Counted from the first letter of the stretch, positions 61,081 to 64,000 are shown. The stretch is DNA of 64,000 nt from Alphaproteobacteria bacterium (GCA_964291285.2 OZ219785.1:256001-320000), one strand, 5' to 3'. Made by a program: numbers and translations. Notes: generated by a model not told the origin, from the sequence alone.

Positions 61081-61482
61081 GGCCCGCCTCCCGTTTGCTG
61101 TTTCCGGCAGTGTACCACGGCCGGCCCCGGATCGGGTTCAGGCAGGCTTTGCGGGCGTCCGTGCCGGCGGCGGAGGATCGTTACATGCTTTTTTTCCTGA
61201 AAAGAGTTTGACTTTGTCCCTGAATGGCCTATATTACCCTCCATAAGAGTATGAATCGGGAACGAACAGGCAGATGACCTGACGGTGCTGAGCGCGTGCG
61301 GCATGGGCCGCCTTGTGGCGCTACTCGGGATTTCGAAGGGCGAAACCGGCCTCGGGCCGGGCAGGGAAGGTGCGCGCGCCGGCCGCGGGAGAACCGACCG
61401 AGTTGTCGTAATTCCGGGGTGGAATCCACGCGCCCGACCCGTTCGAAATAGGCCGCCGGACGGTGCGGCCGGGGGAGGAGTC

Positions 61483-61887
61483 ATGACGGACTTGCTGGCG
61501 GGACGGAGCCAGGGGCTGGCGTTCGGCGAGGACCTGCGCCGCCGGGCGGTTGCGGCGGTGCTGGACGAGGGGATGACCAGGGCGGCCGCGGGCCGGCGGT
61601 TCGGGGTCCATCCCCAGAATATCTCCCGCTGGGTGAAGCGCTATCGGGAGCGCGGCCATCTGCGGCCCGATCCGAGGGGCGGCGACTCCCGGTCCTGGCG
61701 GATCGAGGCGGAGCGGGACCGGATCCACCGCCTTCTGGAGAGGCGGCCGGGCATCAGCATCCGCGCGCTTCGCGACGCGCTGGCAGCGGAGGGCGCCGAG
61801 TTCGGGTTGGGCGCGGTGCAGCGCTTCCTGAAGCGCCACGGCCTGGAGCGCGCCCGCCGCCCGGCCGGGGCCGGCCGGCGCAGGTGA
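61483..61887 (+). CDS. IS630-type transposase N-terminal HTH only
   Basis: EDLRRRAVAAV..GMTRAAAGRRFGV...ISRWVKRYRERG..PRGG; no DDE domain follows; RBS GGAGGAG. Confidence 0.65.
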   Translation: MTDLLAGRSQGLAFGEDLRRRAVAAVLDEGMTRAAAGRRFGVHPQNISRWVKRYRERGHLRPDPRGGDSRSWRIEAERDRIHRLLERRPGISIRALRDALAAEGAEFGLGAVQRFLKRHGLERARRPAGAGRRR

Positions 61888-61954
61888 CGGCGGGCGCCCG
61901 GCAGCCGCGCCGATTGCAGGCGGCGGGCCGGCGGAGTAGAAGACGGGCGCCCGG

Positions 61955-62031
61955 CGGGGCGTAGCGCAGCCTGGCAGCGCGTCTGCTTTGGGAGCAGAAG
62001 GTCGCGAGTTCGAATCTCGCCGCCCCGACCA
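61955..62031 (+). tRNA. tRNA-Pro(TGG)
   Basis: Canonical cloverleaf CGGGGCG...TCTGC-TTTGGGA-GCAGA...GTTCGAATC...CGCCCCGACCA. Confidence 0.96.
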
Positions 62032-62112
62032 CCGTTCGGACCGCGCGCCCTGCGCCAGCCCGGTCGAGCGCCCGGATTGCGTTACGGGCCCGGGAACGGG
62101 AGGACGGACGGC

Positions 62113-62310
62113 ATGAGCGGCGAAACGGCGGTCATCATCCTTGCGGTCATCGGCGCCGGGGCTGCTCTCGGCCTGCTGATCGTTCCGGGCCAACGCGAAT
62201 TGCGGCGCGACATTGCGAACCTGTGCGAACGAATGGCGCGCGTCGAGGGTGCGGTCGAGGCCCTGCGCAACGCCATTGCGGGGCAGCGGAGGGGAACCGC
62301 CCGCGAATAA
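62113..62310 (+). CDS. Small TM plus coiled-coil hypothetical protein
   Basis: MSGETAVIILAVIGAGAALGLLIVP..RELRRDIANLCERMARVEG; RBS GGAGGA. Confidence 0.55.
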   Translation: MSGETAVIILAVIGAGAALGLLIVPGQRELRRDIANLCERMARVEGAVEALRNAIAGQRRGTARE

Positions 62311-62847
62311 ATCCCGTCCGGCGGGGCCGTTCGTCCTCGTCGCGCGGTTACCGGCGCACGCAACGCATTTTCGGCACTGCCTGGGGCCGGCGTCGGCCTC
62401 CCGACTAGGCGTCCGCACTTACGCCTGCTCGCCGCTCCGCTTGGTGAAGCCCTCGAACAAGCCCTCCAGACGGGCCATGCGCTTGCGCAAGTCGGACATA
62501 TCGCGATGCAGGTTCCAGAGAAAGCCCGCACCACGTTGCGGCGATCCGGTCTAATCCCGTCCGCTCGATCCGTTTCATGCCTTCCACATACCGACAGCGC
62601 TGACCCACCTGTGCCGGGTCGCCCGCTTCCGTAATGGGACTCCGTAGCAGCCAGCGCCGTTGAAGCCTTTGGCAATAGCGGGTGACCCAACCAAGCGGGA
62701 CCCGTGGCGCTGTTTGCAGGGCTATCATCCCAGCAAATTATTTTTCACCAAACGATTGACAAGAGTACATATCCATGATAATTGCGGAGACGGCGGTGGT
62801 GCGGAGAGGCTTGACTCCATTCTGTCTTGATGCAAAATGCGTCTGAA

Positions 62848-62922
62848 GGCGGGGGAGCGTGACGGCCACGCCGGGAACTAGAAAATCCACGTAAGCCGGT
62901 TCGACTCCGGTCCCCGCCTCCA
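62848..62922 (+). tRNA. Atypical tRNA-like gene (Cys-like body, loop reading AGA)
   Basis: GGCGGGG/CCCCGCC acceptor, T-CCA end, GCCGG-TTCGACT-CCGGT T arm, GCGT/ACGC D stem; anticodon stem imperfect. Confidence 0.65.
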
Positions 62923-62933
62923 GACATGCCGAA

Positions 62934-63007
62934 CAGGGGGTAGTCTAGCTGGTAAGGCACCCGCTTTAGGAGCGGGAGACTTGGGTTCGAGACCCAACCC
63001 CCTGACC
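62934..63007 (+). tRNA. Atypical tRNA (Pro-like body, TAG anticodon, short variable loop)
   Basis: CAGGGGG/CCCCCTG-A acceptor, CCCGC-TTTAGGA-GCGGG anticodon arm, TTGGG-TTCGAGA-CCCAA T arm; ends ACC without full CCA. Confidence 0.75.
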
Positions 63008-63230
63008 GGCGTTTTAATTAGCGTTGACATATTACCTCTTGTCAAGCGCCCTAGTTCTTGATATTTCGTTCAACTGGTGGCTATAGGGAACGCTACCATG
63101 CTGGATAAGGCCAAGCTCGACCTGTTGGCCAAGGTCATGCAGCGCGTGGTTCAGGAACGGCTAACCCCCAATGCTCCCGCCAAGGAACCGCCGCAACCGG
63201 CGAAGTGATCAAGAGACGCAGCAGAGCTTT

Positions 63231-63338
63231 TGGTGCAGGCGGTGGGATTTGAACCCACGGGGCACGGGGTTGCTTGGAAGCTTGCCGCGCCCGCCGGCGT
63301 CTAAGGCCGGTGCAATAAGCCAACTCTGTTACACCTCC
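63231..63338 (-). tRNA. Atypical class II tRNA (TAG anticodon, very long variable arm)
   Basis: GGAGGTG/CGCCTGC-ACCA, CCGGC-CTTAGAC-GCCGG, ~34-nt variable region, GTGGG-TTCAAAT-CCCAC. Confidence 0.7.
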
Positions 63339-63798
63339 AATAGCGTAGCGCCCCGGTTGATATCATATGTCAGCCGGGGCGCAGCTATAACCTAGCATCG
63401 GCTAGTCAAGATAAATCTTGAATGCGCATTTGCCATGATCGCGGGCATAGACGCGCGTGCCGTCTTTCTTGGTGAACCAAGGCCGCAGAATGTATCGGCG
63501 ACCATCGGTATCAACGTAGATCTGATCGGACATTATGTCCTCCACTGGAAAACCTGTGGAGAGACACTTGCGCTAAACAAACTGGTGCGGGTAAGGTTGC
63601 CTTGCTCGCGCCTGATCAGCGCAAGTGCTCTCTGTGGGAGAGTGGGGTCGAGGTCGTCCAAGGGCCTCGGCCCCTTTCCGTTTGACACCTCCTGTCAACG
63701 ACAGGCGTCAGGCTAGATCACAGGCAGTGAGGCGTCAACATACGAGATGCATGGGAAAGTTTGACAAACTACACAACATCTTGGAAACTGTGGATAAC

Positions 63799-64000
63799 TT
63801 AGTCCACCACCAACCCGGTACACATCACCCGCTTGCCAATTAGCCCAACTACCACGTCGCGCATTTGAGCAATGGTGTCCTCATCTCGCACGTTATGGCG
63901 GCCGGCGAACTCGGTAACGTAGCGATGCAGGTACTTCTGGCTAATCTTGTGGAAAGTGCCCTTATGCGCCCGTTTAAGCATGGCCCAAAATGACTCAATG
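63799..64000 (-). CDS. IS1595-family transposase, C-terminal part (5' outside window)
   Basis: IESFWAMLKRAHKGTFHKISQKYLHRYVTEFAGRHN matches the IS1595 DDE C-terminal motif. Confidence 0.88.
   Translation of the reverse strand, partial: IESFWAMLKRAHKGTFHKISQKYLHRYVTEFAGRHNVRDEDTIAQMRDVVVGLIGKRVMCTGLVVD

Follow-up and report, generated by a model that had tools for sequence, protein, structure and literature searches.

Three tRNA-like genes with mismatched bodies and anticodons beside a decayed IS1595 element in an alphaproteobacterial genome

How do three tRNA-shaped genes, each with the body of one isotype and the anticodon of another, come to lie beside a dead transposase, and would they ever have served translation? 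Natural tRNAs with such mismatches are raw material for codon reassignment and programmed mistranslation. The question is raised here by a 64,000-nt stretch of DNA from an Alphaproteobacteria bacterium (GCA_964291285.2 OZ219785.1:256001-320000), the whole of which is called the window below, in which T1, T2 and T3 occupy 491 bp of inserted foreign DNA. An earlier note on this DNA had described three non-canonical tRNA genes, two in tandem on the plus strand and one of class II on the minus strand; all of them could be located, although T1 scores below the Rfam gathering scores. The features of the locus are as follows.

61955..62031, plus strand: canonical tRNA-Pro(UGG) (ARAGORN; Rfam tRNA, 68.1 bits)
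62038..62718, no strand: GC-rich first part of the insertion (67.7%), containing fragments of small ORFs (GC)
62719..63023, plus strand: T1-T2 unit, two promoter-like sites and two tandem tRNA-like genes (GC step; joint in a sponge-metagenome contig)
62756..62782, plus strand: TTGACA..GATAAT site (TTGACA 62756-62761, GATAAT 62777-62782, 15-nt spacer)
62811..62838, plus strand: TTGACT-16-CAAAAT promoter-like site ending 9 nt upstream of T1 (promoter scan)
62848..62922, plus strand: T1, tRNA-like gene with a U73-CCA end (Rfam, ARAGORN, similarity)
62934..63006, plus strand: T2, class I tRNA with a UAG anticodon (ARAGORN, Rfam)
63021..63049, plus strand: hairpin after T2 (-9.6 kcal/mol)
63077..63208, plus strand: 43-aa ORF, 36 aa from its first ATG (ORF call)
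63231..63338, minus strand: T3, class II tRNA with A73-CCA and anticodon UAG (Rfam)
63348..63382, minus strand: GC-rich hairpin between the 63402..63533 ORF and T3 (-23.1 kcal/mol)
63402..63533, minus strand: 43-aa ORF whose ATG follows a GGAGG ribosome-binding site at a distance of 6 nt (ORF call)
63644..63684, plus strand: terminator-like hairpin with a T-rich tail, overlapping TCCGTTTGAC
63799..64000, minus strand: 3′ part of an IS1595 transposase pseudogene (Pfam DDE_Tnp_IS1595, PF12762, 77.1 bits)

The DNA from about 62038 to 64651 is in its entirety an insertion, since tRNA-Pro abuts the groEL terminator in genomes of the same genus. The groEL-side match starts at query position 2837-2860 in 16 of 16 same-genus genomes, and 0-14 bp separate the tRNA-Pro piece from the terminator in at least eight (G004, G006, G010, G011, G012, G014, G015 and G016). 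The 3′ side of the canonical tRNA-Pro(UGG) is the hotspot for insertion, and the insertions found there in G001, G002, G003, G005, G009 and G013 contain no further tRNA-like gene at E <= 0.1. The first part of the present insertion (62038..62718), pieces of which recur at the same site with 80-88% identity in G002, G003 and G005, has no Pfam family above the cut-off and lies outside the tRNA block. At 62718/62719, where GGGCTATCATCC begins, GC content falls from 67.7% (62038-62718) to 55.8% (62719-63668), which agrees with the AT-richer segment that had been reported from 62719 onwards. The block with T1-T3 (55.8%) and the IS1595 relic (55.6%) are thus alike in composition, compared with 68% for the genome and 67.6-71.9% for the flanks. 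Within the block, the T1-T2 unit may be a separate indel. The ORF at 63077..63208 has no Pfam or PHROG match and is unsupported as a gene, and that at 63402..63533 is an orphan whose sole match among 5.8 billion proteins is itself, with no Pfam or PHROG family and no informative Atlas match. No nuclease, toxin or defence gene was found close to T1-T3, and no phage or plasmid genes remain in the island.

A promoter scan returned two promoter-like sites against 0.6 expected, among them the one directly upstream of T1, in which base 62833 is T in sequencing run X3, giving TAAAAT in place of CAAAAT. The runs X1-X3 derive from the same organism and study and are near-identical, and therefore they are not independent. 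The promoter-like TTGACA..GATAAT site proposed earlier has both motifs, but its spacer falls outside the 16-18 nt accepted by the scan and it was not called. The two palindromes that had been pointed out (63021-63049 and 63348-63382) do fold better than shuffled sequences, with z values of -3.0 and -3.9, respectively. The right arm of the former also pairs in inverted orientation with 62753-62772 (repeat I2, 20 nt, 80% complementary).

T2 has an ordinary cloverleaf, with 61.6 bits in the Rfam tRNA family (RF00005, E 2.5e-12; gathering score 29 bits), 21 of 21 stem pairs in the Rfam alignment and, in our own reading of the sequence, U8, A14, G18, G19, U33, G37, U54, U55, C56 and G53:C61. The earlier note had suggested a check by ARAGORN: the program called T2 with its defaults (74 nt, anticodon tag), T1 at -ps80 (75 nt, anticodon aga), and missed T3. 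Determinants of tRNA-Pro include C1:G72, A73, G35, G36, G37 and G15:C48, according to the portions of two papers available to us (PMC9976931, PMC10404621). Five of these six are kept in T2 (C1:G72, A73, G36, G37 and G15:C48) in both the cmscan alignment and an alignment with three tRNA-Pro(UGG), and A35 in place of G35 is the sole change in the anticodon loop, turning UGG into UAG. When T2 and the three tRNA-Pro(UGG) were folded jointly by RNAalifold, 22 of 22 pairs were kept in all four sequences, nine of them with compensatory changes. Nucleotides 18-46 of T2 are 93.1% identical to an annotated tRNA-Pro of Streptomyces phage Samy, and nucleotides 17-49 are 90.9% identical to tRNA-Pro(UGG) of a tRNA array on a Mycolicibacterium alvei plasmid. 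In both of these arrays (Gln-Cys-Leu-Pro and Gly-Cys-Trp-Pro-Val-Met) tRNA-Cys comes before tRNA-Pro, as T1 comes before T2. The 4-nt variable loop lacks the long arm of bacterial tRNA-Leu; A73 is the tRNA-Leu discriminator, but the Leu determinant A15:U48 is absent, the pair being G15:C48. T2 is also without an encoded CCA, its 3′ end reading ACCG, unlike all canonical host tRNAs. By its sequence, T2 is a flawless cloverleaf of the tRNA-Pro(UGG) type whose anticodon became UAG by G35A.

T1 is, by similarity, a derivative of tRNA-Cys with an AGA anticodon and a crippled anticodon stem. It is 85% identical over 59 nt to the canonical tRNA-Cys(GCA) of another alphaproteobacterium and reaches no Rfam gathering score, its best family being tRNA-Sec (30.1 bits, cut-off 47, E 0.0026). 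The changes, as counted by eye, are unevenly spread: the acceptor and T arms have three, all pair-preserving (for example, C5:G68 to G5:C68), and the D and anticodon half has 13 plus a 1-nt insertion. The anticodon stem has only three Watson-Crick pairs, and G8/G14 and A15/A48 replace U8/A14 and G15/C48. A helix between leader and trailer lengthens the acceptor stem (fold z -3.85). Two ideas on T1 were tried and rejected. An anticodon UAG common to all three genes does not hold, as the only 7-nt-loop register of T1 reads AGA. A tie between T1 and a second CysRS was likewise dropped: of 17 genus genomes, 4 have two CysRS genes, and T1 is missing from three of these 4. The two CysRS paralogues of the present genome are 62% identical and align over 460 aa, and therefore neither lacks the C-terminal part. 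Furthermore, selC* tRNA-Cys combine U73 and an anticodon of GCA or UCA with a long variable arm and an 8/4 layout in which A51a is bulged; T1, which has U73 but an AGA anticodon, a 5-bp T stem free of a bulge and a 5-nt variable loop, falls outside this group.

T3 was found by the Rfam tRNA model (RF00005) with 38.4 bits (gathering score 29, E 6e-06). It has a 33-nt insert as variable arm and two stem mismatches (G2xG71 and A10xC25). The long arm and A73 would fit the tRNA-Leu class, but the body matches tRNA-Ser: its best host match is tRNA-Ser(UGA), and 10 of 15 among the phage matches listed are annotated as tRNA-Ser. Nearest to it is an accessory tRNA(UUA) of the congener G016, compared with which the anticodon stem of T3 shows double compensatory changes at 27:43 and 31:39 (by eye). 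T3 thus joins the class II body of a tRNA-Ser to a discriminator of the Leu/Tyr type (A73) and a UAG anticodon. In all three genes the body belongs to one isotype and the anticodon to another, which is new relative to the earlier observation.

Homologues of the island proved rare. No match to the 1082-nt block was obtained by blastn against plasmids and phages, and T1-T3 were not found in 36 family genomes or in 400 class genomes (the best two candidates per genome were scored), both sets yielding only tRNA-Cys or T-arm-sized matches. T2 alone gave two short T-arm matches in 400 phylum genomes. Its anticodon-arm pattern had no match in viral_contigs and two chance matches in genome_contigs, inside coding sequence and with no tRNA, and two of its 20-21-mers had no match each in viral_contigs. 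The anticodon-arm 17-mer of T3 was found 61 times in metagenome_contigs, none of these being followed by a T arm. The only homologue found is a copy of part of the island, about 90% identical, in a sponge metagenome (run X4, a contig of 2799 nt). To the left of the match this contig has about 1.5 kb more, in which the ancestral element may be less decayed. It spans 63085-64130 with 97 substitutions and five one-base indels, and its joints (62718>63024, 63050>63085 and 64130>64642) are weak, with 27-29 nt on the shorter side. All five indels lie in spacers and none in T3, either small ORF or the hairpin; by our own arithmetic, in an argument framed after seeing the data, this gives (315/714)^5 = 0.017, and for T3 alone the value is an uninformative (938/1046)^5 = 0.58.

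The 3′ end of an IS1595 transposase, which had also been noticed before, is indeed present at 63799-64000 on the minus strand. Past the window, the gene continues as far as window-equivalent 64585 and the IS as far as 64651, and the nearest proteins are 68-69% identical. A tblastn search with a 311-aa relative revealed two frameshifts, an in-frame stop and the loss of aa 119-165 (~47 aa, including the first catalytic Asp); the transposase is a pseudogene and this IS copy is dead. The end at 64651, which has the GGGRATTAT form of the family, was set by the copy in G002 and by empty sites and is the sole end that can be defined. The matching inverted repeat and target duplication, proposed earlier as a check, were not found: in 62030-63800 the best match to a second repeat scores 16, against a shuffled average of 15.9, GGGRATTATA with up to two mismatches has no plus-strand match at 62719, and the 8-bp duplication is absent, the flanks reading GTTTGCAG and AAAGAAAA. 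An 8-bp target duplication is typical of IS1595. Candidates for the second repeat at 62719, 63669 and 63753 were considered, none of which exceeds chance. No second copy of this IS exists in the genome. A survey of IS1595 neighbourhoods, also proposed earlier, revealed no tRNA inside the other relatives scanned, the one tRNA match of L024 lying outside its IS match. An enrichment of the transposase in the matching rare codons was rejected too, with one CUA among 14 Leu codons and one UCU.

Considering the vehicle alone, 62719-64651 might be one IS1595-family transposon in which the tRNAs and small ORFs are passengers before the far inverted repeat, a model that we regard as somewhat unlikely and that is compatible with any functional reading of T1-T3. 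IS1595 members can carry passengers, as the earlier note had said: another IS1595-family element of the same genome (four copies, 2.4 kb) has one in the same relative position, a DNA methylase-HNH fusion flanked by the 3′ end of the transposase on one side and by the inverted repeat on the other. The model also draws on the equal GC of tRNA block and IS relic with its sharp step at 62719, on the GGG with which the block opens like IS1595 ends, on the coincidence of the right IS end with the end of the entire insertion, and on the sponge contig, in which the block from 63085 on is contiguous with the IS. However, besides the chance-level score of the second end, the missing GGGRATTATA at 62719, the missing target duplication and the single genomic copy, the distances disagree. 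The inverted repeat of a related IS in G009 lies 135 bp past the transposase stop, and TCCGTTTGAC, a 10-mer that recurs unchanged within the inverted repeat of the other, sister IS1595 element, lies here 113-122 bp past the stop; with a spacing like that in G009, the tRNAs would therefore fall outside the IS. Because only the end at 64651 can be located and the second repeat is not above chance, carriage of the tRNAs within the IS is unproven. Of the mobile element carrying odd tRNAs that had been suggested, a foreign insertion contiguous with an IS1595 copy of the same GC is retained, but the IS is dead and its second repeat and duplication were not found.

The explanation that we prefer, tentatively and with less than even confidence, is that the locus is the relic of a mobile-element tRNA array beside a dead IS1595 copy, alloacceptor-remoulded for rare codons. 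In this proposal, 62719-64651 would be decaying, horizontally acquired mobile DNA, comprising the dead IS1595 copy and the adjoining remnant of a tRNA cluster. The promoter-like sites at 62756-62838 would drive transcription of T1 and T2, T3 would be transcribed from the minus strand, and all three would be processed as ordinary tRNAs are, with the CCA-adding enzyme supplying what T2 lacks at its 3′ end. T2 and T3 would then take leucine and read CUA, and the original benefit would have been the translation of AT-richer foreign genes; T1 would most likely no longer decode. Based on 1241 long ORFs with high GC3, CUA (0.55 per 1000 codons) is the second-rarest and UCU (0.95 per 1000) the seventh-rarest of the 61 sense codons in the host. 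In the accessible text of PMC9976931, Leu identity in E. coli depends on A73 and the tertiary core, with variable and anticodon arms dispensable, A15:U48 favours LeuRS, and tRNA-Ser has in G73 an antideterminant that keeps LeuRS and TyrRS away. T2 and T3 would accept leucine because both have A73 and bacterial LeuRS is independent of the long variable arm. Since T2 has G15:C48 and not A15:U48, and keeps five of six ProRS determinants, its leucine charging is a guess.

Several observations tell against remoulding. A canonical tRNA-Leu(UAG) is already present in the host, the lone G35A transition in T2 could be mere damage, T3 has its two stem mismatches and 38.4 bits, T1 lies below every gathering score, and T1-T3 are unconserved in the genomes searched. 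In addition, described tRNA arrays are far larger than the three genes found here.

T1-T3 could also be pure relics, three dead pseudo-tRNAs of a decayed mobile element in which all changes are neutral and nothing is made. The heavy decay of the adjoining transposase, the D and anticodon half of T1 and its failure to reach any Rfam gathering score, the mismatches and oversized variable arm of T3, the lack of an encoded CCA in T2 and the absence of homologues from the large collections searched would all be expected of such genes, and transposon-linked allo-tRNA pseudogenes and inactive species were found by Mukai et al., as far as the available part of that paper goes (PMC5389517). We nevertheless consider pure decay unlikely. 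The helices of T2, complete and with canonical conserved bases, differ from those of its relatives only by compensatory changes, and its 17-nt anticodon arm departs from theirs only at the middle anticodon base; with its helices intact, T2 is therefore unlike what random decay predicts. The pair-preserving changes in the acceptor and T arms of T1, and the ~9%-diverged sponge copy, whose five indels all leave T3, both small ORFs and the hairpin untouched, also speak against it.

The contrasting idea is that the genes are dual-identity tRNAs charged according to their bodies: ProRS would load T2 with Pro, SerRS would load T3 with Ser, and one or other of the two CysRS would load T1 with Cys. Some CUA codons would in that case yield Pro or Ser, and UCU would yield Cys, akin to the tRNA-ProX and allo-tRNA systems; restriction to the rarest codons of the host would keep the damage small. 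We hold this to be distinctly unlikely, and give no more credence to the joint reading that follows from it, namely a recoding cassette in which Cys, Pro and Ser scaffolds were refitted for rare UCU, CUA and CUA, codons whose meaning would become ambiguous (Pro, Ser or Cys) whenever the cassette is expressed; an equally improbable extension would make it a 7/5-geometry, synthetase-independent counterpart of tRNA-ProX and allo-tRNAs in an alphaproteobacterium. In this reading, the ochre-reading tRNA(UUA) of G016, likewise Ser-type with A73, hints at a larger family of accessory class II tRNAs with switched anticodons in the genus. The disagreement of body and anticodon isotypes in three of three genes is consistent with such charging, as is the intact anticodon arm of T2 and the fact that it has lost only G35. 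T1 has A34 and A15:A48, which are two unusual features of tRNA-ProX, and two CysRS are available in the genome. According to the published text at hand, tRNA-ProX whose anticodons are altered, one of them having U35, need no synthetase of their own for charging in E. coli and lead to mistranslation with Pro (PMC10404621), U73 alone gives Cys identity to minihelices (PMC9976931), and allo-tRNAs that bear a Leu or a UAA anticodon deliver Ser (PMC5389517, PMC7609411); G35, however, is given as a strong ProRS determinant (PMC9976931, PMC10404621). T2 also lacks the A33, A34, A15:A48 and G21 of tRNA-ProX, T3 has A73 and not the G73 of tRNA-Ser, and the distribution of paired CysRS genes in the genus does not follow T1. 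Moreover, no dedicated synthetase is nearby, PF00587 being represented by four genes genome-wide with no extra ProRS or SerRS, and conservation is limited to one close relative.

A role as non-translational mimics, which would either divert nucleases or toxins that attack tRNAs or mark where RNase P / RNase Z cut a short polycistron, is very improbable: the degraded anticodon arm and intact acceptor and T half of T1, the pairing of leaders and trailers that extends the acceptor helix in T1 and T2, and the irregular tRNA polycistrons linked to toxin-antitoxin loci in the available text of Mukai et al. (PMC5389517) would suit it, but the surroundings hold no nuclease, toxin or defence gene, neither small ORF matches any family, and T2 is a complete canonical tRNA.

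What the locus would mean depends on which of these readings holds. If leucine is accepted, as the preferred reading of a remoulded array has it, T2 and T3 would illustrate how new isoacceptors arise by remoulding; if the old identities are kept, a new mistranslation system would be at hand; and if the genes are dead, the island would be an ordinary relic that mainly marks the tRNA-Pro/groEL insertion hotspot. To our knowledge, only a few families of mismatched tRNAs have been described, namely allo-tRNAs, tRNA-ProX and some mitochondrial cases.

With respect to mobile elements, the relic resembles passenger-bearing IS1595 elements in its DDE_Tnp_IS1595 domain, its GGGRATTAT terminal repeat and the extra DNA past the transposase 3′ end, and is unlike them in its broken transposase, in the second repeat and target duplication not being found and in its single copy. 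The arrays of phage Samy (OR263580.1) and of the M. alvei plasmid (NZ_AP022566.1) are tandem and closely spaced accessory tRNAs on mobile DNA, as T1-T3 may once have been, and phage Samy also has a tRNA of class I length whose anticodon, CAG, is that of Leu. Their anticodons fit the bodies (UGG for Pro and GCA for Cys), whereas none of the three does in the island, which has only three genes.

Allo-tRNAs, as presented in the parts of PMC5389517 and PMC7609411 available, share with T3 a Ser-type long variable arm and non-Ser anticodons, including those that read CUA/CUG and UAA, and share with the island a link to mobile DNA, many damaged or inactive copies and short polycistrons of odd tRNAs (PMC5389517). 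Their acceptor branch has 12 bp arranged as 8/4 or 9/3, in contrast to the ordinary 7/5 acceptor/T geometry of T1-T3 (Rfam for T2 and T3, ARAGORN for T1 and T2), and they have G73 where T3 has A73; the published cases in these parts come from Clostridia, Proteobacteria and Acidobacteria. The tRNA-ProX family comprises tRNA-ProA, -ProN and -ProT of Streptomyces and Kitasatospora, as opposed to an alphaproteobacterium here (PMC10404621, seen in part). Like T2, its members combine a proline body (C1:G72, A73) with the anticodon of another amino acid, and like T1 they have A34 and A15:A48. Their A33, A34, A15:A48 and G21 contrast with U33, U34, G15:C48 and A21 in T2, and T1 differs from them in U33, G1:C72 and U73. 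The tRNA-ProX genes adjoin a ProRSx gene, whereas the island contains no synthetase and the genome no ProRSx (none of the four PF00587 genes is near). A UAG (Leu) anticodon like that of T2 is not reported for the family in the available part of PMC10404621. As measured against the portions of the allo-tRNA and tRNA-ProX literature at hand, in which neither was met, a tRNA-Pro-type gene of perfect structure that bears a Leu anticodon and a Ser-type tRNA whose discriminator and anticodon are both shifted towards Leu appear to be new.

An Rfam scan of the region 61500-64000 with permissive settings returned three tRNA-like genes (T1, T2 and T3) in addition to a canonical tRNA-Pro.

tRNA-like features in the region 61500-64000
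61955-62028, plus strand: tRNA-Pro (Rfam tRNA, 68.1 bits, E 4.1e-14)
62847-62919, plus strand: T1 (Rfam tRNA-Sec, 30.1 bits, below the cut-off of 47, E 0.0026)
62934-63005, plus strand: T2 (Rfam tRNA, 61.6 bits, E 2.5e-12)
63234-63338, minus strand: T3 (Rfam tRNA, 38.4 bits, E 6e-06)

Over the whole window, ARAGORN found two tRNAs, the canonical tRNA-Pro(UGG) (61955-62031) and a 74-nt 'tRNA-Leu(tag)' (62934-63007), which is T2; at 80% stringency it also reported T1 as a 75-nt tRNA with anticodon aga (62848-62922). The earlier note had described two plus-strand tRNA folds and a minus-strand class II tRNA from sequence alone, and these are recovered by the two tools; the palindromes and promoter-like hexamers (spacer of 15 nt) that it listed are also present. 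In all three genes, the isotype of the tRNA body (Cys, Pro and Ser in T1, T2 and T3) differs from that of the anticodon (AGA, UAG and UAG), and all anticodons correspond to very rare codons. Among 677,281 codons of 1241 long ORFs with high GC3, CUA is the second-rarest sense codon (0.55 per 1000) and UCU the seventh-rarest (0.95 per 1000), and the host tRNA set includes canonical tRNA-Leu(UAG) and tRNA-Ser(GGA). We tentatively favor the view that T1-T3 are what remains of a tRNA cluster on a mobile element, in which the genes had been remoulded into rare-codon readers.

T2 has a perfect cloverleaf with all universal nucleotides in the cmscan alignment (U8, A14, G18, G19, A21, U33, G37, U54, U55, C56, A58 and G53:C61), a variable loop of 4 nt and no encoded CCA. 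In a sample of 400 genomes from the phylum, no related tRNA was detected. A search with T2 by itself against annotated mobile DNA gave matches to tRNA-Pro in Streptomyces phage Samy (nt 18-46, 93.1% identity) and to tRNA-Pro(UGG) in an array on a Mycolicibacterium alvei plasmid (nt 17-49, 90.9%). When T2 is aligned with these two tRNAs and with tRNA-Pro(UGG) of the host, none of the 22 predicted pairs is lost in any of the four sequences, compensatory double changes are seen at nine of them, and the anticodon loop of T2 (UUUAGGA) differs from that of its relatives (UUUGGGA) only at position 35. Because of this pairing and this single loop difference, T2 is, as judged from the alignment, a tRNA-Pro-type gene that has been well maintained and carries the anticodon UAG. 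It retains C1:G72, A73, G36, G37 and G15:C48, given as ProRS determinants in PMC9976931 and PMC10404621, and has lost G35. A tRNA-Pro with a UAG anticodon is absent from the available portions of these two papers and of PMC5389517 and PMC7609411. The tRNA array of phage Samy (OR263580.1) has the order Gln-Cys-Leu-Pro; its tRNA with the Leu anticodon CAG (L114:200-274) measures 74-75 nt, the length of a class I tRNA. Mobile elements other than this island can therefore also carry tRNAs that have a Leu anticodon but no long variable arm.

T3 is a class II tRNA with an insertion of 33 nt at the variable arm in the Rfam alignment. Its top host match is tRNA-Ser(UGA), and 10 of 15 phage matches, among the matches listed, are annotated as tRNA-Ser. 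It is most closely related to an accessory class II tRNA (89 nt) of a congener (G016), named 'tRNA-Stop (tta)' by ARAGORN, which has a Ser-type body, A73-CCA and anticodon UUA, and which would decode the ochre stop UAA. This gene (L010:1501-1589; G016:C1, about 245828-245928, minus strand) lies within lower-GC DNA, 3.4 kb from canonical tRNA-Ser(GGA), and is present in one of the 17 genus genomes; elsewhere the best match of T3 is ordinary tRNA-Ser(UGA) at 76-80% identity. Both tRNAs carry A73 in place of the G73 of tRNA-Ser, and T3 differs from the G016 tRNA by compensatory changes at 27:43 and 31:39, a variable arm 17 nt longer and the mismatches G2xG71 and A10xC25. In PMC9976931, the G73 of tRNA-Ser is described for E. 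coli as an antideterminant against both LeuRS and TyrRS, with A73 as the key Leu determinant. By these rules, the A73 discriminator together with the UAG anticodon makes T3 look like a Ser scaffold moved Leu-ward. Since A73 is found in both T2 and T3 and LeuRS is independent of the variable arm, both are, on the favored reading, probably Leu acceptors.

T1 was aligned with three alphaproteobacterial tRNA-Cys(GCA) genes. Three changes separate its acceptor and T arms from theirs, and each preserves pairing (C5:G68 to G5:C68; C65 to U); in the D and anticodon half there are 13 substitutions and one inserted base, including paired changes at tertiary positions (8/14 from U/A to G/G; 15/48 from G/C to A/A). 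Three Watson-Crick pairs remain in the anticodon stem, the 3′ end is U73-CCA, and in the precursor fold leader-trailer pairing lengthens the acceptor helix by five pairs and covers the CCA. T1 is probably inert. Two CysRS paralogues, both full-length and only 62% identical, are encoded in the genome (C3:1746392-1747285, minus strand; C2:1223164-1224060, plus strand); three other genus genomes also have two CysRS genes (4 of 17 in total), and no link was found between the second CysRS and the Cys-like T1.

The three genes lie in a genome of 6.1 Mb (five contigs, 68% GC), of which the window is C1:256001-320000. The groEL-side flank match begins at window-equivalent 64635-64658 in all 16 other genus genomes, and in at least eight of them a tRNA-Pro piece lies 0-14 bp from this flank; because the two nearly abut there, approximately 62038-64651 is an insertion. 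It has two parts, a host-like one (62038-62718, 67.7% GC) and an island with 55.6-55.8% GC throughout (62719-64651), whose start agrees with the AT-richer segment noticed previously. Insertions recur in the short gap that separates tRNA-Pro from the groEL terminator (62031-62040), a hotspot whose cargo differs among genus genomes: G001, G003, G005, G009 and G013 carry other insertions, including a group II intron (G009) and a 590-aa ORF with a transposase fragment (G001), and at E <= 0.1 no further tRNA-like gene turned up in any of the relatives' insertions. Just 5′ of tRNA-Pro, a 200-aa ORF (61285-61887, plus strand) has transposase-type helix-turn-helix domains (HTH_28, HTH_23 and HTH_Tnp_1) but lacks a catalytic domain in the same frame. 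Two small ORF fragments, 62437-62510 (minus strand) and 62113-62310 (plus strand), have a common motif, L-R/H-R-D-x-x-x-L-x-x-R-M-A-R-L/V-E-G; the former recurs at several unrelated sites in genus genomes (82-90% DNA identity).

The IS1595 transposase 3′ end reported in the earlier note is real (DDE_Tnp_IS1595, 77.1 bits for the C-terminal ORF piece), and its nearest proteins have 311-325 aa and 68-69% identity. In an alignment with one of these proteins, residues 2-46 are in one frame and 54-118 in another, residues 119-165 or so, where the VEVDETY motif and first catalytic Asp of the relative sit, are missing, and residues 166-311 are interrupted by an in-frame stop; on this reading-frame structure, the transposase is a pseudogene. 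The match to an IS copy in G002 (79-82% identical) stops at the exact base of the insertion end (...GGATTATAATTCC/AAAGAAAA), so the transposase-proximal IS end is 64651, where the inverted repeat reads inward GGGAATTATAATCC. The earlier proposal that the IS carries the tRNAs stands as to a foreign-looking insertion with an IS1595 relic, but the second IS end was not located: the best local match to the repeat in 62030-63800 scores 16 (shuffle mean 15.9), the family end consensus GGGRATTATA, which summarizes seven ends in four relatives, gives no match in suitable orientation with up to two mismatches, and no target duplication flanks the insertion. A long IS enclosing the tRNAs as passengers is somewhat doubtful. 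Another IS1595-family element of the same genome (2.4 kb, four near-identical copies, C3:2119246-2121670 and three more, L002-L005; end repeats GGGGATTATCCGYTTGAC) has a passenger past the transposase 3′ end and convergent with it, a 400-aa N6_N4 DNA methylase-HNH endonuclease fusion. A short IS adjoining the tRNAs is possible; the distance from transposase stop to repeat is 135 bp in a relative with three copies in G009, and in the island, 113-122 bp past the transposase stop, there is a 10-mer that also occurs without mismatch in the repeat of the other element. The vehicle is a question independent of the function of T1-T3.

The island stretch is nearly unchanged in three runs of the same organism (X1-X3); one of the few differences listed over the 3 kb compared is a C>T at 62833 in X3, which changes the -10-like hexamer before T1 from CAAAAT to TAAAAT. 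A sponge-metagenome contig of 2799 nt covers 63085-64130 with 97 substitutions and five single-base indels, with weak joints hinting that 62719-63023 and 64131-64641 are missing from it; the island is therefore older than the split from this relative of approximately 9% divergence. All five indels fall in spacers (0.017 for all features jointly by post-hoc arithmetic, T3 alone being uninformative). Neutral decay, to which the altered D and anticodon half of T1 and the mismatches of T3 might be ascribed, is a main rival of the favored reading but rather unlikely for the three genes, T2 having its pairs intact.

The other main rival, that T1-T3 have dual identity and truly mistranslate, appears improbable, T2, with its Pro-type body, being the strongest candidate by the precedent of tRNA-ProX. 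As described in the available portion of PMC10404621, tRNA-ProX combines A33, A34 and A15:A48 with ProRSx; since these never occur all together in T1, T2 or T3, none is a member of that group. The remoulded rare-codon readers that we favor are likewise distinct from the allo-tRNAs of PMC5389517 and PMC7609411, as far as the available portions describe them, because all three have 7/5 geometry.
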